Position numbers and translations under genes: made by a program
From: a virus
Taxonomy: Duplodnaviria; Heunggongvirae; Uroviricota; Caudoviricetes
Length of the DNA: 64,000 nucleotides
Reading direction: 5' to 3' (one strand)
Virus record (IMG/VR): IMGVR_UViG_3300026533_000003
Coordinates: 37,772-101,771 of that record
The notes under the pieces: model-generated
The model's database searches: none
What the model saw: only the letters and a program-made list of their open reading frames with translations
Told to the model about the DNA's origin: nothing
Shown here: positions 43,207 to 62,563 of the stretch, in pieces
How the letters are laid out: each line of letters begins with the position of its first letter
Position numbering within the stretch: position 1 is the first letter of the stretch

Positions 43207-43458
43207 TATTATTCCTTATTTTTTGTTATCGTAAGACTAATTAAGTTTTACTTTCTTCTGCTCAGTACCTTTCTTCTTATAAATTTTTAAGATGATACAG
43301 TTACTCAATTATTTATCCATAAGATTAATCGAGGAGATAAACTGCTCCTTGCTCCGCTCTAGCCTCGCAGAGACCCAGCGGTAGCGATTATATATGTAGG
43401 GCGACGAAGGAGCATACCTTTTAGAGAAAAAATAAGTACCACCCGAAGGTGGTTGAGG

Positions 43459-44217
43459 TTAGCAGATGTGGTAGGTAGCTTGGTGAGTGTTGCGGACAAA
43501 CTCGGTCACATCTATGCCGAAGTCTTGCTGGCAGAAGTCCTCTAGTATTCTAGATTCGGCTAGGATACGGATTGCTTCTATGTATAGCTCTTGCACTCTC
43601 TCAACATTGTTGGGGTGAGTATCGAATTGGTCGTGGATATGAGTTACTATGAAGCCCTCTTTATGGGCTTTAGTGATTACATAGCGAACTATCCAAGCAT
43701 CTTGTGCATGAATAAAGTTTGGAGCTAGCGAGGTTGCTACTTCTGAAGTACCCACTTCGTTATAGATGTATGGTAACTCTAACCCCTCTACTGCTAGAGT
43801 CCCCTCTATTTTGTTTATTACTGGAATGTAGCTCACATGCCCGTCAAGGCATTTAAATGTGTGGAAGGTAGCTGAGGTATCCCAACGGTCGTTTAGGGCT
43901 TCTAGGGTATTCATAGCACCTGGGAAGAGGACTGATAGAGTTTCATAGAAAGCTTCTAGTTCCGGAGTGTCTTCTCCGAATGCTGAGATTGGCTGGTTAC
44001 GGCTATTGTAGAATGCTGTCATAGTTGGTTTCTTACAGTAAGCTCTAATCTCGCTAAAGCTCTTACCTACAAATATCTCTGAGTTTGGGACTAGAGTTAT
44101 TATGTGTTGAGCAATTAGAGTGTATGGGTCGGCACGGTCCACTTTAGTAGTGTAGTTGTCACGGTTAGCTCTTAGGGCTCTGATTTCTGCTAGTATTATT
44201 TTCTTAGTTCTTCTCAT
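43459..44217 (-). CDS. T7-like single-subunit RNA polymerase, C-terminal fragment
   Basis: 'LAPNFIHAQDAWIVRYVITKAHKEGFIVTHIHDQFDT' aligns to T7 'IAPNFVHSQDGSHLRKTVVWAHEKYGIESFALIHDSFGT' (motif C). 'KKPTMTAFYNS' aligns to 'KRSVMTLAYGS'. Preceded by the RBS CCGTAGGAGG. Confidence 0.8.
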   Translation of the reverse strand: MRRTKKIILAEIRALRANRDNYTTKVDRADPYTLIAQHIITLVPNSEIFVGKSFSEIRAYCKKPTMTAFYNSRNQPISAFGEDTPELEAFYETLSVLFPGAMNTLEALNDRWDTSATFHTFKCLDGHVSYIPVINKIEGTLAVEGLELPYIYNEVGTSEVATSLAPNFIHAQDAWIVRYVITKAHKEGFIVTHIHDQFDTHPNNVERVQELYIEAIRILAESRILEDFCQQDFGIDVTEFVRNTHQATYHIC

Positions 44218-44234
44218 TTGTTCCTCCTACGGAA

Positions 44235-44498
44235 TTATTTGTTACGGTTTAAGTTATAAAGGAATATAACTGCCTCTGCGGTTATTTGTGTTACTGGTTC
44301 CTTCTTAGGGTTGTGACAGTTATCACTACTGTATAGTATTTCTGTGCCTCTTAAGACTAAGTAAGGTTCGGTGGTATGTTTATAGGTAGTTTCTCCTTCT
44401 ACCCAGTGATACCCTTCCTCGAAGGCTATATCTTGTATGACGAGTGAAGTGTCAGGAGTTACCTTAATCATACTATTGTTAGTTAGCACTTTAGGCAT
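44235..44498 (-). CDS. ssRNAP internal fragment (87 aa, shifted frame)
   Basis: Lies between two RNAP fragments in a different frame; 'VLTNNSMIKVTPDTSLVIQ' aligns loosely to T7 'INGTDNEVVTVTDENTGEI'. Its start overlaps the upstream stop (ATGCCTAA). Confidence 0.5.
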   Translation of the reverse strand: MPKVLTNNSMIKVTPDTSLVIQDIAFEEGYHWVEGETTYKHTTEPYLVLRGTEILYSSDNCHNPKKEPVTQITAEAVIFLYNLNRNK

Positions 44499-45303
44499 TT
44501 GCTAGTTCTCTTTCAAGTTCTAGTATTTTCTCATTTGCTTCATCAGTCATCTCACGAATGATATGCGGGTTGACATTAGAATTAGCCCCTCCTACTGTAC
44601 ACCCTGCCATCGCTGACATTAGTTGAATTCCCGAAGCTGTGGCATCGAAGCCGACACGGTGATTAATAGGTTTACACAATATTACACCATTGTTATAGGC
44701 TAGTATTGCTTTGATGAATAGTTCTTGGTCATCGGCTCTATGAGCTTCAGCTAGCATTTGAGTTTCATCAAGAGTCCCATTAAGGAATATATTCTTGATT
44801 AAGCGGTTGGCTCTAGTTATTCTTTCGAAATAAGTTAGCTTATCGTAGCCGTAAGTGTTTGCTATATCTAACTTAAGGTATTTGATGCCTTTAGTAGTTA
44901 GTTCCTCACTGTGTTTGTAGCTGAGCATAGCTTTGCGGTAGGCATTGCCTTGAGGATTACAATGGTACCCCTGGCTATAGCTACGGCCTCTTTTATCGTA
45001 TTTCCACCCGAAGAAGAAGCTGTTGTTGTTCTCTAGTAGGTAATCTATTACTACATCAGTTTCTCGTTGTAGGTGGATGAAGCCTTTCTCTCTCTCTGAT
45101 ACCTCTAGCGGAGTTAAGTCCTCTGAGGGTGCCTTTAGAGTGTCTTTAATGTATGGTAGAATTTCTTCATCAATTTCCCACTCTACTGCTTGAAGAATGT
45201 TTAGGAAGTCAGTGTTGATGTGTTGACCTTTGTCGTTGCCTTTACCGAGTATTGGGCTGTCGTTTTCTTTTGTTAATAGGTGGCTAGTGATTTTCTTATT
45301 CAT
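44491..45303 (-). CDS. ssRNAP middle fragment
   Basis: 'WKYDKRGRSYSQGYHCNPQGNAYRKAML' aligns to T7 'DWRGRVYAVSMFNPQGNDMTKGLL'. 'FDATASGIQLMSAMAGCTVGGANSNVNP' aligns to '[28 protein letters not shown]'. Confidence 0.8.
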   Translation of the reverse strand: MNKKITSHLLTKENDSPILGKGNDKGQHINTDFLNILQAVEWEIDEEILPYIKDTLKAPSEDLTPLEVSEREKGFIHLQRETDVVIDYLLENNNSFFFGWKYDKRGRSYSQGYHCNPQGNAYRKAMLSYKHSEELTTKGIKYLKLDIANTYGYDKLTYFERITRANRLIKNIFLNGTLDETQMLAEAHRADDQELFIKAILAYNNGVILCKPINHRVGFDATASGIQLMSAMAGCTVGGANSNVNPHIIREMTDEANEKILELERELANA

Positions 45304-45304
45304 A

Positions 45305-45451
45305 TTATTTCCTTTTATTTAGCTTGGGTTTACGGTTGAACTTGTATCTATTTAAGATAGCTTGTCCCTCAGCTGGTGTTGTTGCCTTTTGCATTAGAGC
45401 TAGGATTTCATCTAGGTCTTCTGCTTTTAGGTGTGGGTTTAGAGTCTTCAT
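45305..45451 (-). CDS. small ORF between RNAP fragments (48 aa; possibly part of RNAP)
   Basis: Own RBS AACCGTAGGAGGTTAAATG; its stop overlaps the next fragment's start. Confidence 0.3.
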   Translation of the reverse strand: MKTLNPHLKAEDLDEILALMQKATTPAEGQAILNRYKFNRKPKLNKRK

Positions 45452-45465
45452 TTAACCTCCTACGG

Positions 45466-46068
45466 TTATCTTGGAGAGTAGTCCATTGGCTGGATTAAGA
45501 GAGGCGGTAAGTACTTCGTAGCACGAATAGCTGAGTAGAGCTCTAGTGATACTTCCATAGTTGGTACCACTACTGCAGAGTCGCCATGCACTTCTATATG
45601 GCCGTTACGGTTAACTGCACGGTCTTCCTCTTTAACTACACGAACATCAAAGATGCCTATGTGTTGGAATGCTGATAGGAGCTGGATACCTGTAGTTACA
45701 GCATCTATCTGGTCGTAGTGGAGCTTATTACCTATTTGTGTACCTATTGCTTGTATAGGAGCTACACCTGGTAAGGCTACCTCTTTACCACCACGGATTA
45801 CTAAGTCTGGGCGGATTAGGATTATAGCTTCTAGGATTGAATCTACGATGAGTTGCTTTGCCTCATGTAGCCCGTAGTTAGATTGAATCTCTTTAATGCG
45901 AGCTTCGTCCTCTAAGTCGGTACGGTCTTTAGTAAGGAAGTCCTCTGCAACTTGTAGTGCTAGGTCTATATCGTCTTGGTCTATACCTTTGATGAACTCT
46001 TTTGTCCACTCTGCTATATTGTGCTTACCCCACACTGCTTCTGCTAATAATTGGCTATTATAACTCAT
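45466..46068 (-). CDS. ssRNAP N-terminal domain fragment
   Basis: 'TMEVSLELYSAIRATKYLPPLLIQPMDYSP' aligns to T7 'TIELAPEYAEAIATRAGALAGISPMFQPCVVPP'. Terminated by a stop followed by a strong RBS. Confidence 0.7.
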   Translation of the reverse strand: MSYNSQLLAEAVWGKHNIAEWTKEFIKGIDQDDIDLALQVAEDFLTKDRTDLEDEARIKEIQSNYGLHEAKQLIVDSILEAIILIRPDLVIRGGKEVALPGVAPIQAIGTQIGNKLHYDQIDAVTTGIQLLSAFQHIGIFDVRVVKEEDRAVNRNGHIEVHGDSAVVVPTMEVSLELYSAIRATKYLPPLLIQPMDYSPR

Positions 46069-46101
46069 ATTGTTTCTCCTGTTAGTTTATGTTATTTAAT
46101 G

Positions 46102-46374
46102 TTAGAACTGTGTGATGTCTTTGGTTACTAGTTCTGCCTCTGGGTTTGTGACTACCACTTCAAGGTAGTGACTGTTTAGTATTAAAGGCAACTTTTCTAG
46201 TGCTTGTTCGTAAGTAACATCTGCTACTGAACGGACACCGAACGATTTACGAGCCATTACATCTGACATGTTAAAGAAACCTGCTTGGTCACCTGTTGTT
46301 GTGCTTACCATTTGTGCTACGAATTGGTTTCTGTTCTTTGAAGTTGATGCTGTGTTTTGTTTAGTGAATGCCAT
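46102..46374 (-). CDS. small protein, paralog family 2
   Basis: MAFTKQN...; strong RBS AGGAGG; promoter-like motif ~75 nt upstream. Confidence 0.45.
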   Translation of the reverse strand: MAFTKQNTASTSKNRNQFVAQMVSTTTGDQAGFFNMSDVMARKSFGVRSVADVTYEQALEKLPLILNSHYLEVVVTNPEAELVTKDITQF

Positions 46375-46440
46375 AATTAAACCTCCTACGGTTTGGTGTA
46401 CTCTAGGTACTTGGTTAGCCCGAAGGCGGTAGTTCTCTTT

Positions 46441-46463
46441 TCTAGTGCAAATAGCACCTGGTT
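46441..46463 (-). promoter_or_regulatory. conserved promoter-like motif, copy 1
   Basis: Minus-strand TTAACCAGGTGCTATTTGCACTAGAAAAGAG, 70-90 nt upstream of the start at 46374. Confidence 0.45.
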
Positions 46464-46761
46464 AAGATGCTAGTAATTTACGGACTTGTGTGATTGAGCG
46501 ACACTGTGAGGCTTGGGCAAGCAACTCTTTTAGTACTTCTACCTCTTTCTCTAAGGCATCCACTTTAGTGTTTACCGGAGTAATAGCAGGCTTACGAAGG
46601 TCTTTAATAGGGTCGTTCTCATATCTACGAGTGTTTGGGTTGTAAGTTCTTATCATAATATCCTCCTCAGGATTGTTAGTATTGTTTATATGTTGTTGCT
46701 GAAACTGGATATGGTTTAAGCATAGCAGTAATGATTGTGTTAGATAGTTTATCGTTCTCAC
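46462..46761 (-). CDS. hypothetical protein
   Basis: 99-aa ORF. Confidence 0.25.
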   Translation of the reverse strand: MRTINYLTQSLLLCLNHIQFQQQHINNTNNPEEDIMIRTYNPNTRRYENDPIKDLRKPAITPVNTKVDALEKEVEVLKELLAQASQCRSITQVRKLLAS

Positions 46762-46927
46762 GATTGACTTTCTCCATTGCCTTTAGTAGCTTCTTATAAG
46801 CTATATCTTGAGCACTGATTAAGTTCCGTAGCTCCTCTACATCTTGAATAGTGAACTCTACGGTATGGTTAGTGCAAGTATTGATGATTACATTGAGAGT
46901 TTCTCTCCAACGAGTTGGTTTAGACAT
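46676..46927 (-). CDS. hypothetical protein
   Basis: 83-aa ORF. Confidence 0.25.
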   Translation of the reverse strand: MSKPTRWRETLNVIINTCTNHTVEFTIQDVEELRNLISAQDIAYKKLLKAMEKVNRENDKLSNTIITAMLKPYPVSATTYKQY

Positions 46928-46928
46928 A

Positions 46929-47261
46929 TTATTTTCCTTTTAGGGTATTTAGAACTCTTCTATTTAAACCTCTACGGTAGTTATTTAACTCGTAGGTAGG
47001 TAGTGTGACTGGGAGTGTTTTAACATCCTCTTGTAGCATTGCTATTGCCTGGGCTATACACTTTCTAAACTTCTCTGTTGCTCTTCTTTGGTCTTCTAAC
47101 TCTTCGAAGTTAGGTGGTAGGGCACAAGTATGGATAGGAAATAGCTTAGGCAGTAGTCCCTTTAGTTGGGCTACACGGTATGCTGTAATGTTACCCTCTC
47201 TGAACTCTGCTGGAGAGTTGTAAGAGGATGCTTGATGGATAACTCTGGCTAGCAAGGACAT
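46929..47261 (-). CDS. hypothetical protein
   Basis: 110-aa ORF. Confidence 0.3.
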   Translation of the reverse strand: MSLLARVIHQASSYNSPAEFREGNITAYRVAQLKGLLPKLFPIHTCALPPNFEELEDQRRATEKFRKCIAQAIAMLQEDVKTLPVTLPTYELNNYRRGLNRRVLNTLKGK

Positions 47262-47512
47262 TAAAAGTCCTCGATGTTACCAGCAGTTAGTACTTCAGTT
47301 TCTTCAAGTGTTATGGTTTGAGTCGCTAAGTACTCTAAGAGGTTACCTTTGTTGATTGACGCTACCTGCTCAAAGGTTGGCTTCTCTGTGGCACAAGTAG
47401 CTCTTAGGAATGCCTTAGATAGGTTAATGAACCCGACTGTGTTACCGTTGTTAGACTTAATGCTAATCTTGTAACTATGTGTTGGTGTGTTATCTTTTCT
47501 TGGATTAAACAT
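47261..47512 (-). CDS. small protein, paralog family 2 (divergent member)
   Basis: 'GFINLSKAFLRATCA...LLEYLATQTITLEETEVLTAGNIEDF' matches the family pattern. Confidence 0.35.
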   Translation of the reverse strand: MFNPRKDNTPTHSYKISIKSNNGNTVGFINLSKAFLRATCATEKPTFEQVASINKGNLLEYLATQTITLEETEVLTAGNIEDF

Positions 47513-47660
47513 GGTGGTTCCTTTAGTTTAGTTTGTATTCTTTTCCCGTGAAGGTAGCTGTTGGTTAATTGGTTAGCATGGTGTAGTAGACATTGCCCAC
47601 AGGACTGTCAAGGTTAGTGCCATTGCTGTGATGAAGTTAAACATATCTTGGAATATCATT

Positions 47661-47912
47661 CTATACCTCCTGTAAGGTAAACTTTGAGCATGGTTTAAGC
47701 TCTATAGGTTGGAACGGTAAGGTTCTGTAGCATAGGTATACTTCTCTATGCTTATCTTGACTACGATGCTTACAATGGAGGCATGAAGGTTTCTCTAGTA
47801 CCTTTATTAGTTCTTCTGCTTCCTCTACTGTGGAGGTTCTCGCTAAACGGTATCCATTGGTAGTAACATAGATAGTGGAGTCTCTCTCTTCTATTGTGTA
47901 CATTGTGTACAT
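47661..47912 (-). CDS. hypothetical protein
   Basis: 83-aa ORF. Confidence 0.25.
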   Translation of the reverse strand: MYTMYTIEERDSTIYVTTNGYRLARTSTVEEAEELIKVLEKPSCLHCKHRSQDKHREVYLCYRTLPFQPIELKPCSKFTLQEV

Positions 47913-48013
47913 TGTTAACTCGTTACTGCTAAGGCTATCATGCCTACTAGCAGGAAGGTTGTTACAACTATGAAAGTGTGGTTACTCATTGGTTCTCCTT
48001 TAAGGTAGTTTAT

Positions 48014-48340
48014 TTACTCTTCTCTAGTGGAAGTAGCACCTGGTTGGTTAGTTTTTATGGAGGCTTTCTCAGTACGGGTTAGGAATAGCAAGGCTTCAGT
48101 AGAAGCTTTTGCATAGTCTATAGTGATATTCCCCTCGTCGCCATATGCTAGGTGCCAGTTAGCCTCTATAAATAAGGTGTTCACCTTGTAGCCGACATTG
48201 CTTGTAGCTCTTACAAATCCCTCGGCAGTAGTTGATAATATGTCATTATTTAGGGTTACCTTGTTGGCTAGTAGTACTGTTACTAATTCTAGGATGTTGT
48301 CATCGGTTACGGTGTAGTAGGTCATGGGTTGTATTTGCAT
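48014..48340 (-). CDS. hypothetical protein
   Basis: 108-aa ORF. Confidence 0.3.
   Translation of the reverse strand: MQIQPMTYYTVTDDNILELVTVLLANKVTLNNDILSTTAEGFVRATSNVGYKVNTLFIEANWHLAYGDEGNITIDYAKASTEALLFLTRTEKASIKTNQPGATSTREE
48023..48045 (-). promoter_or_regulatory. conserved promoter-like motif, copy 2
   Basis: Minus-strand AACCAACCAGGTGCTACTTCCACTAGAGAAGAG; it lies inside the 3' end of ORF 48014..48340 and ~110 nt upstream of the start at 47912. Confidence 0.4.
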
Positions 48341-48837
48341 TGTTTCTCCTTGTGAGTGTTATATGGATGGTGTAGTTAAACGGTATAGGTTAACGATTGG
48401 TAATGTTAATAGCATTGAGCTATAGTTGGACGAGGTGGAACGATAGTGGTTGGTTGAGTAAGATTACCTGGGAAAGCCTTTAATGGCTTCTAGGTAGCTT
48501 ATATGGACTCTGATGAGTGGTTATGTGTTAGACGGCATTGGTTGATGGCAATGTTAGTCTAATACTAGTAGTTTTTATGTGGTTGGTATTGGAGATGGCA
48601 CGGGATTCCGTGTGGGTTAGGTGGATTATGGTATGGGATTGTGGTTTGGTTGTGGGTGGTAACGACCGCACATCGGTACCATCTCTAGCCCCTATCTACT
48701 ATAAGGGTTACAATACCTCTGTCCATTTTGTCTCGTGTTTATATATAAGAGAACTTGGACAACCATTTCCCCGCAGACCCGTGAGGTGTGGAAGAACCCC
48801 GAATTTCTCAATCATCACAGTGATGATTAGGATTGTG

Positions 48838-49284
48838 TTAATATAGTGTATTTAAAGTAGACTCTGAACAGTCAAGTCTAACATCAGATGGGATATTATT
48901 ACAGTACTCCACCGATTGTATGAACTTCCATATCTCACACTCTTTGCCCTTTATTGCAAATGTAGGGTTGACGATGTACTCATAGTCTACACCTGTAGGC
49001 ATCAGGAGTCCGTAAGGAGCTAGTCTTGACACACTATTTAGTATTGACCTCTTGTTGTAACCACTATGGGTTGCTACTAGGTCTATTGTGTCTCCTGATA
49101 TAGTAAAGTGATTGCTATTAGTTCTCATTACATACAGTAACGAGTCCATAACCGCTTTATCATCAGTCCTTAGTGTTATGTATACCTCGTATAAGTCTCC
49201 ATTAGTCTTGATTAAGATATTGCCCTTGGCTCCTGTATGAGGCTGCTGCTTAACCCCGTTAGGTCTATTAGTTAGTGCTGGCAT
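48838..49284 (-). CDS. hypothetical protein
   Basis: 148-aa ORF. Confidence 0.3.
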   Translation of the reverse strand: MPALTNRPNGVKQQPHTGAKGNILIKTNGDLYEVYITLRTDDKAVMDSLLYVMRTNSNHFTISGDTIDLVATHSGYNKRSILNSVSRLAPYGLLMPTGVDYEYIVNPTFAIKGKECEIWKFIQSVEYCNNIPSDVRLDCSESTLNTLY

Positions 49285-49331
49285 TATGTCTCCTTGTAAT
49301 TCATATAGTAGTATACCATTGTATACTCTCT

Positions 49332-49354
49332 TCTAGTGCAAATAGCTGTTGGTT
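49332..49354 (-). promoter_or_regulatory. conserved promoter-like motif, copy 3
   Basis: Minus-strand AACCAACAGCTATTTGCACTAGAAGAGAG, ~50 nt upstream of the start at 49284. Confidence 0.4.
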
Positions 49355-49660
49355 TAGCAACCGCTACACCAAATAGATGTGGAGTAGTAGTCGAGGCTTG
49401 GGTGTCCGTCCTTCGTCCTGCCTTCTAGTGTGCTCTTAGTGTGCTCTTGGCTCTGGGCTTGTGTGCTCTTGGTTGGAAAAATAAAGGTAGCCCCGAAGGA
49501 CTACTTAGTGTCTAATACAGCTGATACTTTAGCACCAGCCATCACTAGGGTTGCAATTACATCAGCACTATACTTAGGCTTGACATTTACCTTGCAGACT
49601 CTACCGTGAAGTTTATATTTGATTAACATAGGATGTCCTTATAGTAGTAACCCCGTAGGA

Positions 49661-50053
49661 TTACTTAGTTTGTTCTGAGAACTGTGTGTCTAGTTCAGCC
49701 ATTCTAGCATTGTAAGCTACTTGAGTCTTACGAAGTTCGAAGTCTAGCTCCATACCGTCTTGTAATGCCTCTATCTTAGATTCTTTAGCCCATAACTGCA
49801 TTGAGTCGCTAGCTACTTGTCTACCTACTTGTGAGGCTTCTTCTAGTGTACCAAATACATCACCAGTTATATTAGCTGATGCAACTAGAGCAGTGTCTAA
49901 TACATCTGCAGTTAAGTTAGTAGTTGCTTTGATTCTCTTGAAGAAACCTTTAGGTCTAGTGTTGTTGTTTAGTGTTGTGTTATTTTCATTCATAGTATTG
50001 TTACCTTTGCCATAGTAGGACTTGTAGTAGTGAGTAGGTTGTGGGTTACACAT
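49661..50053 (-). CDS. hypothetical protein (first gene of the leftward early array)
   Basis: 130-aa ORF. Confidence 0.3.
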   Translation of the reverse strand: MCNPQPTHYYKSYYGKGNNTMNENNTTLNNNTRPKGFFKRIKATTNLTADVLDTALVASANITGDVFGTLEEASQVGRQVASDSMQLWAKESKIEALQDGMELDFELRKTQVAYNARMAELDTQFSEQTK

Positions 50054-50083
50054 CTTGTTTTAAAGGCCGTAGCCTATGTACTT

Positions 50084-50110
50084 CTAATCAAGTGCAACTA
50101 GCACCTGGTT
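50084..50110 (-). promoter_or_regulatory. conserved promoter-like motif, copy 4
   Basis: Minus-strand CTAACCAGGTGCTAGTTGCACTTGATTAGAAG, ~40 nt upstream of the start at 50053. Confidence 0.4.
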
Positions 50111-50202
50111 AGGTTATCTATTGTATGGACATAGTGGACGAGTTACCGTTACTGTGCCGTCTGATGCTACTGTGTGCATTAGAACTCCTTGAAGTATTTT
50201 AT

Positions 50203-50230
50203 TCTTATCAAGTGCAAGTGGCACATGGTT
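50203..50230 (-). promoter_or_regulatory. conserved promoter-like motif, copy 5 (degenerate)
   Basis: Minus-strand ACAACCATGTGCCACTTGCACTTGATAAGAAT. Confidence 0.3.
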
Positions 50231-50825
50231 GTACAGTTAGTGTTGATAAGTGTGCTCTTGTATTTATTATAGGATTGAGTTTAGGTACCGTTATATGACT
50301 GCTTATGTGGGGGGGCAGGGTATTGTTAATCATCAATTTAGGAGGTATACTACACCTGCTCCCAAAAATATAAAATATTTCACATACACCCATCATACAT
50401 CTACCACATATCCATCAAGCATCTACAAAGCATCTATCAAACATGCTACGCTTGCCTCACAAAAAATAAAAAATTACTATAAGAAACCCCCTCACCTCCC
50501 CCCCCTCCTATAAGCCCTTAGCTATCACCACTCGATAACCTACGGTTACCTCCTGACCTACAACTCCAGTAATACCACTAACACAATTGGATTACGAGTT
50601 TAGGAGGGAAGCCGTAAGGCTAACCGAGTAAAGGAGTACTCCTAAAGCAACACCTACCTCAGCACCAACTGTACTAATACTAGTGCAATCCCTTACCCAT
50701 ACAGCACTCATGCAAGCCCCTACAAGCAACGATACTGCTAAAAGGTACCAGTAGTTGCCGTAAAGGATTAAGCCTCGTGTAAGCCACGTGAGACTATACT
50801 GCTACCAAATTTAAAGGAGGACTCT

Positions 50826-50963
50826 ATGAGCCACCATAAAACTAAACTACTCTGTCCTAAGTGTAAAGAGTATGTAGAACCAGAAGAGAAGATATTCCAT
50901 ACAATGCTATGCCCTAAGTGTAATACTATACTTGAGGGTGATAAGCAGTGGAAGCAATCATGA
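50826..50963 (+). CDS. small Zn-ribbon protein (45 aa, hand-called)
   Basis: MSHHKTKLLCPKCKEYVEPEEKIFHTMLCPKCNTILEG...; strong RBS AAAGGAGGACTCTATG; first plus-strand gene after the strand switch. Confidence 0.4.
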   Translation: MSHHKTKLLCPKCKEYVEPEEKIFHTMLCPKCNTILEGDKQWKQS

Positions 50964-51229
50964 GGTATATGGACTATGGGACTGAGTTCCCTAAGATGCC
51001 TAAGAGTATTACTAGTAGTAGGTGCAAGTGGTGTAATAGAGACCACCCTGTACTTGAGGTGTGTATGAGTAACCCTTCATATGTACTGCCAATAGATCTC
51101 CCTAGTGACGCCGAAGAGTATAGTCCTCTTATAGTAGTAGACACCACTAAGGATGGGGACTATACTTGCAAGGTATCGTACCAGGTAAGGAATGGTAGTG
51201 TTTTAGTTAGTAATATAGAGTACGTTTAA
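50960..51229 (+). CDS. hypothetical Cys-containing protein (start taken at 'MRYMDYG')
   Basis: The tracked ORF begins at 50948; its ATG overlaps the upstream stop. Confidence 0.3.
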   Translation: MRYMDYGTEFPKMPKSITSSRCKWCNRDHPVLEVCMSNPSYVLPIDLPSDAEEYSPLIVVDTTKDGDYTCKVSYQVRNGSVLVSNIEYV

Positions 51230-51351
51230 CATGGCACTAGTAGAATATATATGGTTTACAAAGACTTACTGGAAGTATGTAGGGGTTGTTGGGTTTATTA
51301 GTGGGTATGTGCCTGCTTTACTAAGGTTTAGAAGATTATTAAAGGATCAGA

Positions 51352-51717
51352 ATGGGATGTAGTGTAAGTGAAGGAGAGTTTACAGAGGCTGTAGCTCTGA
51401 CTAAGGAAGGTAACATGAAAGTTACTAGAAAGCTTATTAAGGATTGGATGCTTGGCCCTAGGGATGCGTCCACTAGTAGAAAAGCTAATAGTAGGTATTG
51501 GAGAGACTTATCGAAGGTTTGGTTTATAACTGAGGAGGAGGCCAGACGTAGGACGTGTGCGAATTGTGAGTACTCACGTAATAATGAAGCGGCAATTGAA
51601 GCTATGGAGCATATACCTAATAATGTACTAGATGCAGACGGCGGTGGGAGAGTATGGTGTGAAAAGTTTGATTTCATATGTCACAACCTTAGGACATGCC
51701 AGGCCTGGGAGTACTAG
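51352..51717 (+). CDS. hypothetical Cys-rich protein
   Basis: 121 aa; 'CANCEY...CEKFDFICHNLRTC'. Confidence 0.3.
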   Translation: MGCSVSEGEFTEAVALTKEGNMKVTRKLIKDWMLGPRDASTSRKANSRYWRDLSKVWFITEEEARRRTCANCEYSRNNEAAIEAMEHIPNNVLDADGGGRVWCEKFDFICHNLRTCQAWEY

Positions 51718-51723
51718 GTAAGG

Positions 51724-52152
51724 ATGGCCTTTCTACAGGTAGGGGCAGGAGCTCCAAAGAAGAAGCAACGACTCTACCTAATGAGTATTACTCTTCCTAG
51801 TGGTATGCATGTTGTTAAGATAGGTAAGGCTAGTGGTAGCTCCTCCAAGGAGAGGATGCTGCAGATTAATGGTAGTATCTTTGATAAGTTTAGAACCACC
51901 GCTATGATCAGTATTAAGAGAGATAGGGAAGTGCCTGAAGATATGGTCTTTAAGTATGAGACAGTTTTACATAGATTCTTCTGTGATTATCAGTATAATA
52001 GTAAGCATAAGTTTGATGGAGTTAGTGAGTGCTTTGCAATACCACTAGAAGATGCTGTGCAGGCTTATGAGGCTGTTATAGAAGGTAGTGAGCCTGACTT
52101 TACTTATGAGCTAGTTACAGTAGAGGATAATGAGTATGAGCTACCGTTTTAA
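51724..52152 (+). CDS. T5orf172/GIY-YIG-like domain protein (putative)
   Basis: 'LYLMSITLPSGMHVVKIGKASG' resembles the 'KIGIT' core of the polymerase-intron HEG. Weak. Confidence 0.25.
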   Translation: MAFLQVGAGAPKKKQRLYLMSITLPSGMHVVKIGKASGSSSKERMLQINGSIFDKFRTTAMISIKRDREVPEDMVFKYETVLHRFFCDYQYNSKHKFDGVSECFAIPLEDAVQAYEAVIEGSEPDFTYELVTVEDNEYELPF

Positions 52153-52163
52153 AAGGAGATTAA

Positions 52164-52631
52164 ATGGCAACAGAGTTTGAGTTTAACAAGCAGTATGGTG
52201 CAGTAGTGCCAGGTAGAAGTGAGCAAGGAAATATAGACCTTGACAATAGGGTTCCTTACTACCCTAATGGTCTTGGTAACGTAGCCTTGCCTCATGGGTT
52301 TGGTGATAGGGGAGTTGTTAAGACAGAGGAAAGCACTACAATACCTACAGATAAGAGTGGTAAGCCCATATTTGAGAGAGTACCTGATGATCACCCTAAC
52401 TGGGTAAATATACCAACAGTACTCCATGGTACACAAAGAGAAGGTAAAGAGTATCAAGATGCAGTTATGAATTATATGTTAACTGGTAAGCATTTAGGAC
52501 AGTTCAGTGAAGGTGTTGGGTTAGCCGTAGATGATGCTAGGAGAACACACATAAGGCAGATGAATGCAGGCAAGCAGGTTGGACTAGGTGAGGTTATACA
52601 GAATGGGCTAGACTTTGCAGTTGGCAACTAG
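52164..52631 (+). CDS. hypothetical protein
   Basis: 155-aa ORF. Confidence 0.3.
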   Translation: MATEFEFNKQYGAVVPGRSEQGNIDLDNRVPYYPNGLGNVALPHGFGDRGVVKTEESTTIPTDKSGKPIFERVPDDHPNWVNIPTVLHGTQREGKEYQDAVMNYMLTGKHLGQFSEGVGLAVDDARRTHIRQMNAGKQVGLGEVIQNGLDFAVGN

Positions 52632-53126
52632 TTTAAGGTTATTACGAACTACTCTAAGGTTAATATAATAGTGACAACTTATGCCAGATACAGTACACTT
52701 AAGGTTTAATTAATAGTACCTCACTATAATTACACCACTCCTAAGCAAGAGACCAAAGGCACAGAGGGTAGACTCTATAACCTACAATGATACCTCCCTA
52801 GGTTGTAACTAAGGGCGAGGGACTAGGCAATCTTAGTCAGGTACTTACAGAGGTCAATCAAGTCACCCGCGTAGCAAAGACTTGATACTAATAGGAGCTA
52901 CCAGGCTCCACTTCATATTGAGGTATAGCACAATGGCAGTGCAACTGGTTTTGGTCCAGTTTACGGGGGGATCGTTACCTCCTACCTCATCCACACATCA
53001 GCATTAACTCCAACATATTTGTATTAACTACCCTAAAACCTACATAACTACAACTATACCTTATTTATTAAACTACACTTAAGCCAACTATAGCTATCAT
53101 GCGTTAAATTTTAAAGGATGTAACTA

Positions 53127-53384
53127 TTGCAAGTAGATAAGACCGGTACCATAGTATGGACCACAGCATTAGATACACTAACTCCTGGAGCGTTCTTCCT
53201 GCTAGCCACTATATGGTTTAGGGACTTAGATATGAATGATTTATCTATGATGAGGGCTACCAAGTTTGGGACCTCTACACATAGGTTGCAGAAGAGAGAG
53301 TTAGTGCAGGAAGGGTACTTAAGTGTATCACAAGTAGGTAAGGGCGAATATCGCTATAAAGTAGGAGAGAATCTCAATGGCTAA
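53127..53384 (+). CDS. hypothetical protein
   Basis: 85-aa ORF upstream of the terminase genes. Confidence 0.25.
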   Translation: MQVDKTGTIVWTTALDTLTPGAFFLLATIWFRDLDMNDLSMMRATKFGTSTHRLQKRELVQEGYLSVSQVGKGEYRYKVGENLNG

Positions 53385-54147
53385 TGCTAAAGAATTTAAT
53401 AAACCAGATCCAAGTAGGACTAGAAGAGTACCAGACTCCTCCCAAAACATAACTAGGGAAAAGCTTAAGAGTGTACTACCTAAGAACTCAGGTGTGCAGA
53501 TAACTGACGAGGTACTAAGGCTTATAAGTACTATGGAGGAAGATATAGACATTGACCAGACTGTGCTAGAGGAAGATATTATGTCCTATATGTTTCTACT
53601 TGGTAACTCTACTAACAGTATTAAAGATTTAGTTAATGCTGTTAAGTTCTGTAACCTAAAGAGGCATTACGATAATAGAACTGCATGGGCTATAGTGTTC
53701 CCGGATAAGTACGAGAAGGCTATCAACGAGAACAAGTATATTGATAGTAGAGTTAGTACCTATAATAACAGTCGGCTAGTTATAGCCATTGATAAAGAGA
53801 TGCTGATACCTGTACATATTCAATACGCAGGACACTTCCATGCAGCCGTTAAGAAACAGTTTGAGCTTATGAATGGTATTAGTTCTGCGGGTAAAGGAAA
53901 GACAACTCCTATGGTTGAGCACCTTGCAGCTAAAGAGCTAGCATTACTAACAGCACAGCCTGTAGAGACTAAGATTGACCTTAAGGTTTCACCTAGTGAT
54001 GCTGCGCTTGGAGCTATGGGTGAGATGAATGAACAGCTTAAGCAGATAGTAGCCAAGCAAAAGAGAGATATTGATGCCGGTATGGATATCATTGATGCAC
54101 AAGTTATTGGTATTGACTTCTCAGATGTTGGCAGGGACAAAGGGTAA
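53377..54147 (+). CDS. putative terminase small subunit
   Basis: 256 aa; position immediately upstream of, and overlapping, the terminase large subunit. Called by position only. Confidence 0.35.
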   Translation: MANAKEFNKPDPSRTRRVPDSSQNITREKLKSVLPKNSGVQITDEVLRLISTMEEDIDIDQTVLEEDIMSYMFLLGNSTNSIKDLVNAVKFCNLKRHYDNRTAWAIVFPDKYEKAINENKYIDSRVSTYNNSRLVIAIDKEMLIPVHIQYAGHFHAAVKKQFELMNGISSAGKGKTTPMVEHLAAKELALLTAQPVETKIDLKVSPSDAALGAMGEMNEQLKQIVAKQKRDIDAGMDIIDAQVIGIDFSDVGRDKG

Positions 54148-55853
54148 TGGCAGCTAAGGCAATAGGGGTATTTGACCTAGACCAAGCACTAGACTCAGTT
54201 GATCTTAGCTTTAACGGGTATAGTCCTTCTGAGGATGCCTTAGAGTTCTTCGCACTGATGCGGCTGGTACAAGGAGAGGATTTCGAGTTCAGTACCCCTC
54301 TATTTCACTATTGGCTCGTAGACCTAATGTTTGGAAAGATTGAGAGGGAGAATTACCCTTACTCCAAGGTAGTTAGGGATAGCATCACAGTTAACCCTAA
54401 GCGGATATGTATTGTGGCCTCCCGTGGTGTCGCTAAGTCCACAGTGGTAACTACATTCTACCCTATCTATTGTGCTATTAAAGGCAAGACACCTGATGGA
54501 TTAACTTCAGAGTTTCACTTAATGGTAGCAGCATCACAACAGGGTGGTGGACGAGTTATGGCCAAGGCTGTACAGTCTATGTGTGAGGATAGTGTATTCT
54601 GTAATAACTATTTTGAGAGTATGCGGTTTACAGAAACAGAGAGTGAGTTCATACGCAAAGGAGTAGCTAAGACTAAGAAGAGGGTGTTCCTGGCCAGGTA
54701 TATAGGTATTGGTGGAGGTATCCGTGGTATCCGTTCTAATATAGGTGCTGAAAGACCAGACCATATTATCTTTGACGATGTTATTCTAAACTCAGATGCA
54801 GCATACTCCGATACGATAATGAAGTCACTTAGGAATACTATCAATGCGGATGCTATCAATGCATTAAAGGGTGGAGGCAGAGGTAAGATCTTCTCAGTGG
54901 CCACACCATTCCACTTACTGGATCCTATTATAGAGATGCTGACAGGAGGCGCTTATACACCTGTTGCTATCCCTATCTGTGAGAAGATAACTGAGACTAC
55001 TACGGAGGAGGAGTTCGTAGGGGTATGGCCATCTATGCACCCTTATCATGCTGTGATAGAGCAGTACCAATCAGCTGTAGCCTCTAAGGCCACTAGAGAG
55101 TTCAACCAGGAGCGTATGCTTAGGATTAGTTCAGACGAAGATAGGATGATCCCTGATGACCTAATTGATTGGTACAGTAGAAAGACACTACTTAAGAACA
55201 TTGATGGATATAACATCTACATAACAACAGACTTTACTACAACCTCTGAGGCTAAGTCAGACTTCTCTGCACTGGCGGTATGGGGTGTTAATAGTGAGAA
55301 GCACTTCTTCCTACTAGACCTATGTGTTAGAAGGCAAAGTATTGGAGAGCAGTACGAAGAGCTCTTTAGGATGGTAAACTTCTGGAAATCTATGGGTAAA
55401 ACAGTAGAGGTTGGTGTAGAGGTAGATGGGCAACAAAAGGCCCATATCTTTGCACTGAAGGAGATGATGGTTAAGAAGAATGAGTGGTTTAGCTTTGCAA
55501 GACAGAAGGGTGCTAAGTATGGGTCTGAAGGCATCCTTAGTAGAAGCTCAGGAGGTAACAAGCACTCTAGGTTTAGAATGATGCTACCACAGTTTCAGAA
55601 TATGATGTTTCACTTCCCAGAGGAGATAAGAGATACTCCTGATATGGAGGAAGCACTTAAGCAGCTCAAGTATACTACCTGGGAAGCCTTTGGTGGTCAT
55701 GATGATTTCTGTGATGTAGTCAGTCAGCTAGGTATGATGGAGATCTACTACCCCTCTGTAAAGGCCTTTAGTGCACCATCATATAAAGATAGATCGATAT
55801 GGGAAGATGTTAAGGATACTTCATCGGTATCCGCATATTCAAGTTATTCCTAG
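54147..55853 (+). CDS. terminase large subunit
   Basis: Walker A 'IVASRGVAKST', Walker B 'HIIFDDV', and a C-terminal RNase-H-like nuclease with 'ITTDFTTTS' and 'LLDLCVRR'; 568 aa. Confidence 0.85.
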   Translation: MAAKAIGVFDLDQALDSVDLSFNGYSPSEDALEFFALMRLVQGEDFEFSTPLFHYWLVDLMFGKIERENYPYSKVVRDSITVNPKRICIVASRGVAKSTVVTTFYPIYCAIKGKTPDGLTSEFHLMVAASQQGGGRVMAKAVQSMCEDSVFCNNYFESMRFTETESEFIRKGVAKTKKRVFLARYIGIGGGIRGIRSNIGAERPDHIIFDDVILNSDAAYSDTIMKSLRNTINADAINALKGGGRGKIFSVATPFHLLDPIIEMLTGGAYTPVAIPICEKITETTTEEEFVGVWPSMHPYHAVIEQYQSAVASKATREFNQERMLRISSDEDRMIPDDLIDWYSRKTLLKNIDGYNIYITTDFTTTSEAKSDFSALAVWGVNSEKHFFLLDLCVRRQSIGEQYEELFRMVNFWKSMGKTVEVGVEVDGQQKAHIFALKEMMVKKNEWFSFARQKGAKYGSEGILSRSSGGNKHSRFRMMLPQFQNMMFHFPEEIRDTPDMEEALKQLKYTTWEAFGGHDDFCDVVSQLGMMEIYYPSVKAFSAPSYKDRSIWEDVKDTSSVSAYSSYS

Positions 55854-55861
55854 GAGGATTA

Positions 55862-56137
55862 ATGTTTAGTACTATACAAAGCTACCTTGCAGCAGCAGGG
55901 GCTATATTGGTTATGGGGTTTGCTCTTATATTTAAAATGAGAGGGGATACCATTGAGGAACTTAAAGTAGAAGTGGGCTCAGCAAGAGCAGAGGTTGAGG
56001 TGGCTAACGCTGTCTCAGGTATAGTTGCAGACCACGAGAAGTTTACAGACAAGCTACAAGATGAAGCTAAAGACACGGAGGTGGCAATTGCTAAAGAGAC
56101 TAACAGTTACAATCCTGGCGACACTATTACTATTTAG
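55862..56137 (+). CDS. i-spanin (Rz-like; N-terminal TM plus periplasmic helical domain)
   Basis: TM helix 'AAGAILVMGFALIF' followed by a charged helical domain; contains an embedded +1-frame lipoprotein gene. Confidence 0.5.
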   Translation: MFSTIQSYLAAAGAILVMGFALIFKMRGDTIEELKVEVGSARAEVEVANAVSGIVADHEKFTDKLQDEAKDTEVAIAKETNSYNPGDTITI

Positions 56138-56372
56138 TGGCTGTACCAGGATTATTGAGAAACCGGTATTGGTTGAGACACAATGCCCTAGGCTAGTTAC
56201 TATCCCTGAGGTAGATACTCTGACTATAGTAGTTGGAGAGGATGGTAAGCTTACACAACATAGCCTAAACGCGCTAGTTAACACTAGTAAGGCATTACGT
56301 AGGACAGAGCAGTTCTACTTATGGCAAATAAATAAGTACAACGCTAAGTACAGTTACCCTATTGACAAGTAA
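56061..56372 (+). CDS. o-spanin (Rz1-like lipoprotein), overlapped with the i-spanin gene
   Basis: 'MKLKTRRWQLLKRLTVTILATLLLFSGC' is a signal peptide plus lipobox. It starts inside the i-spanin ORF in a different frame. The tracked ORF starts at 56025. Confidence 0.5.
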   Translation: MKLKTRRWQLLKRLTVTILATLLLFSGCTRIIEKPVLVETQCPRLVTIPEVDTLTIVVGEDGKLTQHSLNALVNTSKALRRTEQFYLWQINKYNAKYSYPIDK

Positions 56373-56418
56373 TGCCACTTAAGGTATCATTCGGTAATTA
56401 AAATTACAGGATGCCTAA

Positions 56419-56868
56419 ATGACTTACGACACACTAAAAGCTATCACTGCTGGGCTTCTTACGGGAGATAATGTACTCCCTAAGGATGACCTAGTCCTAC
56501 AAGGCCTGGTTCAGTACGCACTAACCACAGTAGCTACACAGGCTGATTCCCTACATCTAATGACTTTAAGCACCACTGCTAATGTACTACGCCTTGCACA
56601 AGGTGACTACCTTATTAGGATGCCTGCTACTCCAACCGAGGGGACAGACCTAATAGATATTGATGAAGAGCTTACATTTGCTGTAGCTAGATATTTAGCT
56701 AGTTATGTAAGTAAGGAGAAGGGCGGTATACATGTACAAGCTGCTGATAGAATCATTAAAGACTATAATGGCAAGACTTATGAGATTACAGATCAAATGC
56801 AACTAGAAGCTGCACATGAAGGGTTACTGGATAGCTGCCCTCCAGGTTCAACTGAGTTCGTGCTATGA
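56419..56868 (+). CDS. hypothetical structural-region protein
   Basis: 149-aa ORF. Confidence 0.3.
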   Translation: MTYDTLKAITAGLLTGDNVLPKDDLVLQGLVQYALTTVATQADSLHLMTLSTTANVLRLAQGDYLIRMPATPTEGTDLIDIDEELTFAVARYLASYVSKEKGGIHVQAADRIIKDYNGKTYEITDQMQLEAAHEGLLDSCPPGSTEFVL

Positions 56869-57350
56869 CCTTAGACGATATATGGAAACTTAAGGACTGC
56901 AACCTACCTACTAAGGGCTCTTTAGATGGGGCAACAGTAAAGCCGATATCTAGGCTTGGGGACCTTAGTAATAAAGTATCACTAGGCACCGCTGCTGTAT
57001 TTATATCAAAGAGCTCTTTCGATGAACATATACCATATAGTAGAGAGTACGATAATACCACAGGGCTTCTGACTATATACATGAATTACCACTTCATTAA
57101 AGAGGTCAGGAGGCAACTTAGTGTAGACGTGCCTGCAGAAGAATCAAAGTTCAGCCCTGAGGAAGAGGTTCTTTACACAGAATATGCTGGCTGGACAGAT
57201 CTCGGTGCAGGAGCTGGTGAACATTTGCTAGCATTTACAGCCTTAGATAAATGGTTAGTGGATGAGGTAATGGATGAATTACATCCAGTACTTGATCGCA
57301 CTTATGACAAGACACACAAGTGGAGAAAAACAGATGAAAGGACAGACTAA
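56865..57350 (+). CDS. hypothetical structural-region protein
   Basis: 161-aa ORF. Confidence 0.3.
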   Translation: MTLDDIWKLKDCNLPTKGSLDGATVKPISRLGDLSNKVSLGTAAVFISKSSFDEHIPYSREYDNTTGLLTIYMNYHFIKEVRRQLSVDVPAEESKFSPEEEVLYTEYAGWTDLGAGAGEHLLAFTALDKWLVDEVMDELHPVLDRTYDKTHKWRKTDERTD

Positions 57351-60300
57351 TGGCTAGTGATTTTTTAAAGCAGGTAAGAGAGATAAGGGGTACAGGTACA
57401 CCAGAGGTTGCACCTACTGATGGAATGTATCATGATATAGCTATTAAGACTACCGATACTGATGGTACACCTAGGTTAGGTGATGGTATGTATGGCAGTA
57501 TGAAAGCCATGTATGGCGGTGTTGTGCCTGTGGTGGAGGACTTAGATAAGATCATTATAGTTAGTGATAATATAGTTAGTGTAATCGGCGTTGCCGATAG
57601 TATAACAGATGTTAACGTAGTCTCAGCAAATATGTCGGCTGTTGCTTCTGTAGCGCTTAATGAGGCTAACATTAATGTAGTTGCAGCAGATATAGCTAAT
57701 GTTAATACTGTGGCTACTAATATAGCTAACGTTAACACGGTGGCTAATTCGTCTACTGAGGTTATTACTGTTGCAGATAATATAGTTGATGTAACCGTTG
57801 TAGCTGCTAATGATGTTAATGTAACTGTTGTTGGCGGTAATATGCCTGATATTAATACTGTTGCTGCTGACACAGTTGCGGTTAACACTGTAGCGGGTAT
57901 TTCAGCTGATGTTACTACAGTTTCTACCGACTCTGCTGATGTTGTTACAGTTGCTTCTAACATAGCTGATGTTACTTCTGTAGCTGATAATATGGCCGAT
58001 GTTAACAACTACGCTAGGACTTACTACGGCAGCCTTACTATAGACCCAACTATAACCACACATCCAACGTTAAGTGTTGGTGACTTGTACTTCAACACCA
58101 CTATAGATATGCTGAAAGTGTATGAGGTTAGTGGTAATTGGACTAATACAGTAAGTACTGTTAATGGCACTAGTGCTAGAGACTCTTTTGTTGCAACGTC
58201 TGGTCAGACGGTGTTCACCCCTTCTGGTGGGTATGACTCAGGATTTATAGATGTATACAAGAACGGTATTAAACTTGTTGATGGGACTGACTTCATAGCT
58301 ACTGATGGTATTGCACTAACTCTATCGCAGGGTGCAGTACTTAATGACTCTATTGAGACAATTGCTTATGGTATCTTTACACTTGCTAATCACTACACTA
58401 AGCTGGAGGCAGACCAAAGAGATGCTTTGAGCACTAAGTGGAAAGGGTTATGGGCTGAAGGGCTGTACGTAACTAATGATATGGCTAGGGATGGGGATTG
58501 GCTAATGGTAGCTAATAAACCTACTAGTGATAGACCAGCACCTCAGCCTAATGGGGAAGTCGAGCATGATACTATTGATGGTACTTTTTTGCCTTCTCAG
58601 TACACTGGTATTGTTTCTATGGAGCATACATACACTATGCTGCAAGCAGGGTGGATCAAGTCACTAAGTATTAAAGTACCTACTTACACCCCTGAATACA
58701 TGTCAAGGGTTATTGTTACTAACGTTACTAATAATGAAGTTACCGTTTATGACAACCCTATCCTTAAAGGTGGTGAGTGGGTTAGTCTTAAGACAGCTAC
58801 AGTTACTACTACTATAGGAGCACAGTTCAAGGTTAAGCTAGAGCTTTACTCCAATGAGAACTCCGCTGTTCTCTCAGGTATATGGGATTCTAACTTAAAC
58901 GATAGCCCTTCAGCAGGTGAGGTTTACTTAGATGACTCCTCAACTCCTACTATAATCACATATAATAACTTTGACTTAGATGGTGTAGATAGAACTACAG
59001 AGCTACAAGGTGTTGTCATAGGTAGTACAATAGATCTTAAGCAACGTACAGATGCTAGTAGGTACTTAACAGTTACAGTAGACTCTATAAGTACTGCAAC
59101 TGCAGGTGAGACAACATATGCAGTAACTCCAGTACTTACAGGTAAAGACCTTAAAGATGGTAAAGAACTTGTATCAGGTATACAACAAGCTTCAACAGTT
59201 CCTACAGAGTATGGCAGTATTGATAACTTCTACTCAGCAGGTACTCCTACATGGGGAGATATTACTACAACATTAAACCTAGGCGGGCTAGTGCAACCAG
59301 TAGTAGGTACGGAAGCGTATGGTATTGATGTAGGGTTCCAAGATGCTTATATAAGCCCGGACTGGGATATTATGAGCACTAGCGGCAGTGGGTCTGGAGG
59401 AGCTACTTCTATAGGAGATGCCCCTAATAATGGCCTTCGCCATACTCGTAGGAATGGCAGCTGGGAAGCAGAGAGTAATGAATCTAGCCCTACTGGACTT
59501 ATTGATGGAGGGGAGCTTAATATAGTCGGTGGTGGAGCTGATGTAGAGGTTTTAGCTGGTGAGGGAGTTAAGGTTGATTCTTATACTAACCCTTACGGGG
59601 CCCCTGCGGTTACTAGACTAAGCTGGAATAGGCTACAAGCAACTATCGTATCTGCTGGTGTCGCAGGTAACATTGTGTACCTAACGTTGGCTGAAGGTGC
59701 CTTAGATGGTCCTGTTGCTAACACTAAAGAAGTGGTACTGAAGCAGTATGTTGTACAGCCAACTCCCCACGAGGCTAGAGATGAAGTCTATTTGGGATAC
59801 GTTTTACATAATGGTACAAGTTGGGGAGAAGTATCAGCACCAGTAGTTGTAAACAACTCAGCTATAACTTTACATGAATACCTTAAAACAGTTAAAGGCC
59901 CATCGTTTACACAAGTTGGTGGCACAGTTACACAACATGCTACTAACTTCACACTAGATAGAGAAGCAGGTATTGTATGGGAACTAAATAGGAACTGGCA
60001 TATAGATAAGAAAGATCCTCACAGAGAGTCATTCAATGCTCAGCCAGAGTTCCAGTTCAAGTACGTTAATAGGGACTTCAGCTCTGTTACTGGCTACACT
60101 AGTACAGTTGACTTAACTCTTTTTGATGATGGTACTGGAGTAGTTACTAACCCTGGAGGCATAAAGAGCACATCTCCTCAGAGGTTATATATTGACCAGA
60201 GGGACAACTACTGGGTTTTAGTAGGACAAGTACTACATGATAACTTCAAAGAGGCTGTAGCTAGACTACCACTAGATGATAACGAGACTGAAGTACCCGC

Positions 60301-62554: not shown

Positions 62555-62563
62555 GAAAATAAA

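Follow-up and report, generated by a model that had tools for sequence, protein, structure and literature searches.

The virion RNA polymerase (vRNAP) of bacteriophage N4, a single protein of 3500 amino acids (aa), is the classic example of a polymerase dependent on a DNA hairpin that supercoiling extrudes, and the second polymerase of this phage, RNAPII, is made of two subunits. Three or four promoters at the N4 genome's left end are read by the injected vRNAP and drive the early genes, including those for RNAPII (PMC4496689, PMC13492108), and RNAPII then transcribes the middle genes, whose promoters are AT-rich and weakly conserved (PMC4496689, PMC13492108, PMC9163698). In Pseudomonas phage LUZ7 the vRNAP promoters are clustered at the left end and serve early genes, with nine early start sites that include a tandem pair (PMC9163698). 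Here we describe a 28-base element that recurs six times ahead of leftward early genes in a stretch of 64,000 nucleotides (nt) from an uncultured tailed phage (positions 37,772 to 101,771 of IMG/VR record IMGVR_UViG_3300026533_000003; this whole stretch is called the window below). Judged from their sequence and setting, the six elements are very probably promoters for a phage-encoded polymerase, and we favour, with less confidence, the view that they are early promoters read by an injected, virion-packaged vRNAP. The element resembles N4 early promoters in its placement, yet it lacks the maintained hairpin that defines them.

Six copies of a conserved element precede leftward early genes

Genes in the window diverge: one set extends leftward from about 50300 as far as position 1, the other rightward from about 50800 to 64000. 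At the head of the leftward genes lies a 6.8-kilobase (kb) block, the early unit, which holds all six copies of the element together with the genes for RNAPII. The copies fall between 46435 and 50230, all on the minus strand. A reading of positions 46300-50400 confirmed what a preliminary description of the same DNA had reported, namely that the motif stands on this strand ahead of leftward early genes; that description had listed five copies, and the one at 47538-47566 had been missed. The positions it gave correspond to real sites, with two of them (50084 and 50203) lying 4-5 nt away from the core starts at 50088 and 50208, and its spacing of 40-110 nt upstream of gene starts fits the measured 51-89 nt.

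Searching with the degenerate core AACCANNNGCYANYTNCACNNGA returned six sites against 0.13 expected, a number that none of 100 shuffles reached, and an independent repeat finder grouped the same six sites as one family (D1). The exact 29-nt consensus, allowed up to three mismatches, recovers only copies 1 and 2 of that description (46435-46463 and 48017-48045). In the six-copy alignment 17 columns are invariant (AACCA..GC.A..T.CAC..GA..AGA), and similarity ceases at the motif borders, beyond which the flanks are unrelated; the copies are therefore not segmental duplications. The position matrix of the six copies carries about 36 bits and gives leave-one-out scores of 22.5-40 bits. Apart from these six, no site in the 64-kb window scores above 7.5 bits, the value of the next best, and in the 9 kb past the window end, which bring the scanned total to 73 kb, no site reaches 8 bits. 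Nothing close to the motif was thus found in 73 kb outside the copies themselves.

A ribosome-binding site (RBS) and a start codon follow every copy within 30-100 nt. From the 5′ end of the motif to the next ATG the distances are 89, 54, 56, 70, 57 and 51 nt for the copies ordered from 46435 to 50202, and behind three of the copies the RBS follows the motif after no more than about 15 nt, which would place the start of transcription within the motif or at its end. We take the G of the invariant GA as the probable start base because N4 and LUZ7 both initiate with G.

The first copy in transcription order (AACCATGTGCCACTTGCACTTGATAAGAA, 50202..50230; 43.4 bits, 34.3 in leave-one-out scoring) has its putative start G at 50209, after which come an RBS and a 21-codon open reading frame (ORF) whose ATG is at 50179. 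The second (AACCAGGTGCTAGTTGCACTTGATTAGAA, 50082..50110; 42.3 and 30.3 bits) forms a tandem pair with the first, 120 nt apart, and its putative start at 50089 precedes a hairpin (AGGC-TACG-GCCT) and a 130-aa ORF at 49661-50053. Next come AACCAACAGCTATTTGCACTAGAAGAGAG (49326..49354; 43.2 and 35.6 bits), with a putative start at 49333 ahead of the hairpin GTATAC-AATG-GTATAC and a 148-aa ORF at 48838-49284, and AACCAGGTGCTACTTCCACTAGAGAAGAG (48017..48045; 45.9 and 37.0 bits), which overlaps the final codons of ORF 48014-48340. The putative start of this fourth copy, at 48024, is followed by the ATG at 47989 of a 24-codon hydrophobic ORF and then by ORF 47661-47912. From the most degenerate copy, AACCAACAGCTACCTTCACGGGAAAAGAA (47538..47566; 38.5 and 22.5 bits), transcription would begin at 47545, 33 nt ahead of the ATG of ORF 47261-47512. 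The last copy, AACCAGGTGCTATTTGCACTAGAAAAGAG (46435..46463; 45.7 and 40.0 bits), has its putative start at 46442, after which come the hairpin GCC-TTCG-GGC, a 90-aa ORF at 46102-46374 and the RNAPII genes. The GCCTTCGGGC hairpin that the preliminary description had noticed after its copy 1 is indeed present. As a guess, the small hairpins behind three of the copies may stabilise the 5′ ends of the transcripts.

The element lacks a maintained hairpin

At the centre of the motif a GTGC-N5-GCAC inverted repeat had been proposed. It is intact in the copies ending at 46463, 50110 and 50230 and broken in the other three, so that it is not a conserved feature; in the copy at 49326..49354, for example, the arm reads CAGC in place of GTGC. 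Across the six copies 75% of the cells are paired, there are no compensatory changes, and three of the four stem pairs vary solely through broken cells. Folding of the template strand as single-stranded DNA gave z-scores of -1.25, +0.71, -0.19, +0.83, -2.49 and -1.19, which are mostly unremarkable.

The N4 criterion that we applied calls for a template-strand hairpin with a 5-7-base-pair (bp) stem, a 3-nt loop and a GC-rich centre, maintained through compensatory change. A second N4 trait is a conserved sequence directly ahead of a G start, 11-14 nt from the hairpin centre. In N4 itself the centre lies at -11, whereas the stem in the window has 4 bp and an AT-rich 5-nt loop, and 9 nt separate the centre of its palindrome from the invariant GA downstream, the predicted start. 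A hairpin-promoter reading of the window motif was rejected, the stem being broken in three of six copies and compensation being absent, and no family of hairpins was found within the early block (43400-50900). With the palindrome broken in three of the six, it is probably the base sequence that is recognised, and not a maintained 5-7-bp stem with a 3-nt loop.

Comparison with known promoter systems

In several respects the elements recall the N4 promoters P1-P3, which are read by gp50: they form a small, near-identical set at one genome end and in a single orientation (PMC4496689, PMC13492108). As in N4, they would drive orphan early genes together with a heterodimer-type RNAPII in a lineage that encodes a giant virion RNA polymerase, and a conserved block stands just upstream of a G start, here a predicted one. 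Unlike N4, with its three or four copies, the window has six, in a genome of about 100 kb, and the vRNAP and RNAPII of the clade are each split into three ORFs. The likeness to LUZ7 lies in the presence of more than three early promoters, in the tandem pair at the start and in initiation at G, predicted for the window, and a minority of the LUZ7 early promoters are also hairpin-less (PMC9163698). In most early promoters of LUZ7, however, the stem has 4 bp or more and a conserved 3-nt loop sits 13-14 nt upstream of where transcription starts, and the hairpin-less ones lie within genes. A 3-nt loop occurs in none of the window copies, and what the six have in common is a long linear consensus.

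Promoters of the T7, T3 and SP6 class are duplex elements of about 23 bp, spanning -17 to +6. Like these, the window element is contiguous, highly conserved, phage-specific and of similar length, with a CAC(T) block a few bases before the predicted G start and a purine-rich initial transcribed sequence. The likeness to SP6 that had been pointed out is literally there (CACTAGA(G)AAGAG against SP6 CACTATAGAAGAG), and when the SP6 promoter is taken as used in papers (ATTTAGGTGACACTATAGAAGAG), the copy at 48045 (CCAGGTGCTACTTCCACTAGAGAAGAG) shares with it AGGTG, CACTA and GAAGAG. Unlike SP6, the copy has six to seven extra bases between AGGTG and CACTA, and its CACTA is directly followed by G rather than by TA-G. 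In the T7/SP6 class the sites are spread out ahead of later genes, whereas those of the window occur only upstream of the polymerase genes, and the neighbouring polymerase is of the N4 RNAPII type, in three pieces, and not a single chain as in T7. The SP6 resemblance is a lead, not evidence of a common mode of recognition.

Relatives carry their own motifs at the same positions

A matrix scan of the loci of 95 relatives found no site of 16 bits or more, so the motif is specific to the window genome; scans of IMG/VR for the exact or degenerate motif, and a scan for close relatives with the second piece of RNAPII, found nothing. Many relatives have instead a motif of their own, in 3-5 copies within the same block, on the early-sense strand and 10-100 nt before an RBS and ATG. 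These include ACTTCTACTnnAGTGATGrTA in L005 (3 copies), CTTTTACTTTAGTAATGA in L019 (3-4 copies), ACTTCTATTnTAGTAATGAGAT in L026 (4 copies), AACCTyTTACnGTnTATTGTT in L067 (5 copies), CGTTAATTTATGATAAG in L090 (4 copies) and ATCTCTACTAATGTAyTTCCAT in L062 (3 copies). Orthologues of ORF 47261-47512 (MFNPRK...) in L002 and L026 are each preceded by the motif of their own genome. This retention of the promoter position while the sequence changed fits co-evolution with a phage-encoded polymerase and argues against the host enzyme. Aligned by eye with the CTTCTAYTnnAGnRATGA motif of L002, L005, L019 and L026, the window motif agrees at 17 of 24 positions if a 4-nt insertion is allowed (CTATTT[GCAC]TAGAAA), a likeness that is only suggestive and was not used.

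In three more distant members of the clade the early motif contains an N4-type hairpin, in contrast to the window, albeit in small samples of 3-4 copies each. In L087 the stem is 5 bp long, the loop is TTC and the closing pair is GC, with 90% of cells paired and four of the five pairs changed on both sides; in L028 a stem of 6 bp bears a 3-nt loop, with all cells paired and two pairs changed on both sides; and in L073 compensation was read by eye among AGCC-TTA-GGCT, AACC-TTC-GGTT and AGCC-TTT-GGCT. These hairpins tie the early-block motifs of the clade to the N4 promoter type. Taken together, the single orientation of the window motifs, their position just upstream of an RBS and their specificity to one genome support their being promoters for a phage polymerase.

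The early block belongs to a distant N4-like phage with a split RNAPII

The window phage is a distant, uncultured N4-like phage (Schitoviridae-type) of about 100 kb. Its terminase (54147-55853) has solely N4-like phages among its annotated phage relatives, at about 32% identity. Contigs of 85.8 and 101.8 kb carry an identical terminase, and relatives by the dozen lie on contigs of 90-120 kb, which together make up an uncultured clade with genomes of about 100 kb. At the DNA level no match to positions 44000-52000 was found among 50,697 phage records.

The preliminary description had placed a T7-like RNA polymerase gene beside the motifs. T7-like polymerase genes do adjoin them, in the form of three ORFs that match N4 RNAPII families rather than of a single polypeptide. 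The pieces lie on the minus strand, downstream of the motifs and within the same terminator-bounded unit. The first (200 aa, 45466..46068) has a weak match to the N-terminal part of an N4-like RNA polymerase family (phrog_2166, E=1.1e-3, profile 57-181). The second (270 aa, 44491..45303) is an N4-like RNA polymerase by its matches to phrog_2166 (E=2e-48, profile 188-432), phrog_414 (E=8e-35) and Pfam RNA_pol, and a tblastn search with this ORF lands on the RNAP1/RNAP2 genes of N4-like phages. The third (252 aa, 43459..44217) is the C-terminal catalytic part (phrog_2051, E=9e-38; phrog_414, E=6e-15; Pfam RNA_pol). ORFs of 48 aa and 87 aa stand between the three pieces. In the relative L002 (826-1132, minus strand) a group I intron (RF00028, 69 bits) also interrupts the second RNAPII piece, at a point just past the DATASG motif.

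Two hairpins with T-runs, both on the minus strand, resemble intrinsic terminators. The one at 49477..49504 (GTAGTCC-TTCG-GGGCTAC, hairpin at 49504-49487) would end a short unit driven by the tandem pair, and the one at 43428..43453 (ACCACC-TTCG-GGTGGT, hairpin at 43453-43438), directly after the last RNAPII piece, would mark the end of the early transcription unit. The orphan proteins of the early block have no PHROG match at a cut-off of 0.001 and only faint ones (E 0.002-0.06), to families without known function. From the divergent layout of early and late genes we infer that the end bearing the early unit is the leading, physical left end of the genome.

A virion RNA polymerase is the probable reader

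A vRNAP is encoded by a syntenic relative, IMGVR_UViG_3300026512_000006, a 102-kb contig whose terminase is 81% identical, and was located by walking this contig through the portal and major head protein. It is encoded by three giant ORFs in a row (1336, 1330 and 1400 aa), which follow the head genes on the late strand (L121:10001-22169, plus strand). The second ORF matches the polymerase domain of the virion RNA polymerase family phrog_2206 (E=5e-87, profile 865-1916) and the third its C-terminal domain (E=4e-120), and the first, the N-terminal part, has no family match. The same three-ORF layout recurs in a more distant contig (L122, 3-11026, plus strand), whose first ORF is only 37% identical; the split is therefore not an assembly error. 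By synteny, the vRNAP gene of the window phage itself would lie near 82 kb in window coordinates.

A protein search with the polymerase domain (L121:13977-17966) returned only itself and one 37%-identical protein, in a word-indexed search. Terminases of the same clade, by contrast, have many relatives of about 80% identity. Unless the word index produced this result, the vRNAP may diverge much faster than the structural genes, which would fit a rapid turnover of early-promoter motifs.

We regard the preliminary description as right in seeing promoters of a phage-encoded polymerase of the single-subunit type, and probably wrong in the enzyme it named, the neighbouring T7-like one. The motifs precede the RNAPII genes, they are absent from the middle genes, and the layout is that of N4 and LUZ7, all of which point to vRNAP and not RNAPII as the reader. 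The opposite assignment would have another enzyme make the first RNAPII, which would then amplify early transcription from the motifs. It draws on the adjacency of the RNAPII genes, on the T7/SP6-like length and linear conservation of the motif, on its SP6-like half (CACTA..GA(A/G)AAGAG) and on the absence of a maintained hairpin. This assignment nevertheless needs a second promoter class in the early unit, and neither a further repeated motif nor a family of hairpins was found at positions 43400-50900. Among the middle genes, 43 kb that RNAPII would be expected to transcribe, there is no copy of the motif, nor is there one in the 22 kb of late genes, and a search for a second motif class in the intergenic DNA of the middle genes gave only RBS-plus-ATG patterns. 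The middle promoters of N4, moreover, are read by a homologue of the polymerase encoded beside the window motifs, and they stand in front of middle genes, have AT-rich sequences of weak consensus, initiate at T and need gp2 or SSB as a cofactor (PMC4496689, PMC9163698). The window motif, long, strongly conserved and absent from the middle region, is unlike them, and we consider RNAPII an unlikely reader.

Some points weigh against vRNAP. The gene is seen in the relative, and its presence in the window phage is deduced, the expected locus lying outside the window. The motif scan covers 73 kb of a genome of about 101.7 kb. The window stem, 4 bp with an AT-rich 5-nt loop in three of six copies, is not the conserved hairpin of N4. 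Finally, LUZ7 RNAPII promoters also look structured, and shape alone assigns no polymerase.

If vRNAP is nevertheless the reader, as we think probable, the genome end bearing positions 50230 to 43430 would enter the cell first and the polymerase with it. The vRNAP would recognise the element of about 28 nt, from about -21 to +8 and with 17 fixed bases, and would initiate leftward transcription at the invariant G of GA in each of the six copies (46442, 47545, 48024, 49333, 50089 and 50209). The transcripts would span the small orphan genes and the three-piece RNAPII and would halt at the terminators near 49490 and 43440, after which RNAPII would take over the middle genes via other, weaker signals. 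Start sites, polymerase assignment and leading genome end are in this scheme all predictions from sequence.

Functions other than phage promoters are still less probable. The motifs might be protein-binding sites, such as repressor operators or sites for pausing or anchoring during DNA entry, or else RNA signals at transcript 5′ ends. Their confinement to the 4 kb that would enter first, the small hairpins behind three copies and a second short repeat, AAGAGCACAC, which suggests that sites for other proteins may exist, can all be cited for this. It is hard to reconcile with the strict single orientation, with the fixed place before an RBS and ATG (about 15 nt to the RBS in three copies), with the same layout in relatives, some of which have N4-type promoter hairpins, or with the lack of an Rfam match, and we hold it to be very unlikely.

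Many phages begin transcription with the host RNA polymerase, and the copy at 50230 overlaps a 9-of-12 match to a sigma-70-like site, but promoters for the host enzyme, alone or redirected by a phage factor, are the least probable explanation of all: the six copies share no pair of -35 and -10 hexamers spaced by 16-18 nt, sigma-70-like sites occur in the region at chance level (26 against 22±5 expected), 28 nt with 17 fixed bases are unlike host promoters, and relatives with 80% identical terminases have quite different motifs at the same sites, a better fit to a co-evolving phage enzyme. The sigma-70 reading was rejected, with one copy alone overlapping a match, and the earlier statement that the conservation exceeds that of sigma-70 promoters holds.

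Other features of the early block and its surroundings

Three exact AAGAGCACAC repeats stand in tandem at 49428..49470 (minus strand), in the interval from the first terminator to the motif copy at 49354, and a fourth, at 50250-50259 (minus strand), lies some 20 nt upstream of the 50230 copy. These four are the only exact copies in 64 kb, all in two noncoding stretches, and may be candidate sites for a regulator of early transcription tied to two of the promoters.

An ORF-free stretch of 497 nt (48341-48837, minus strand) between the 148-aa and 108-aa genes folds with a z-score of -3.0, as good a fold being found in 1 of 100 shuffles; it may be a structured early RNA. Neither this stretch nor the early block as a whole has a match to an Rfam family.

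The early proteins encoded at 46102-46374 (90 aa) and 47261-47512 (83 aa) each stand directly behind a promoter copy and are kept in L002 and L026. They have in common a short segment of weak similarity, G..GF.N.S (E=0.004, from one pairwise comparison). The position of their genes recalls that of the highly expressed single-stranded-DNA-binding cofactors gp2 of N4 and Drc of LUZ7, a likeness of position only.

A noncoding gap of about 600 nt with G-runs (50231-50825) parts the divergent early and late blocks. Within it, a 17-mer at 50460-50476 (minus strand), TAATTTTTTATTTTTTG, is common to the relatives L002 and L018 at the same place, although the surrounding early regions cannot be aligned. 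This gap may mark a genome terminus, a packaging site or an origin.

Elsewhere in the window, the middle region has a group I catalytic intron at 23480-23810 (minus strand; RF00028, full model, 57.6 bits), in a 393-nt gap between ORFs (23508-23900). A tRNA-Arg (CCT) at 32306-32381 (minus strand) belongs to the middle block and a tRNA-Gln (TTG) at 52919-52993 (plus strand) to the start of the late block. The window begins with a ligase fragment; a relative reached through it shows only small genes over 5 kb.

Implications

It is conceivable, though we would not call it likely, that the split vRNAP of this branch gave up the hairpin promoter and reads a linear element of about 28 nt as the T7 and SP6 polymerases do. 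If this were true, a clade that has classical 3-nt-loop hairpins in its deeper branches would hold natural intermediates between hairpin-dependent and sequence-only recognition. Use of a linear motif by a related virion polymerase would mean that promoter recognition in this family has more plasticity than the models drawn from N4 and LUZ7 imply. The clade would also offer matched pairs of polymerase and promoter, with and without hairpins, for studies of specificity, and possibly new orthogonal parts for transcription. For the phages themselves, the six sites would delimit the early transcription unit of an uncultured group and correct which polymerase is assigned to start the infection.

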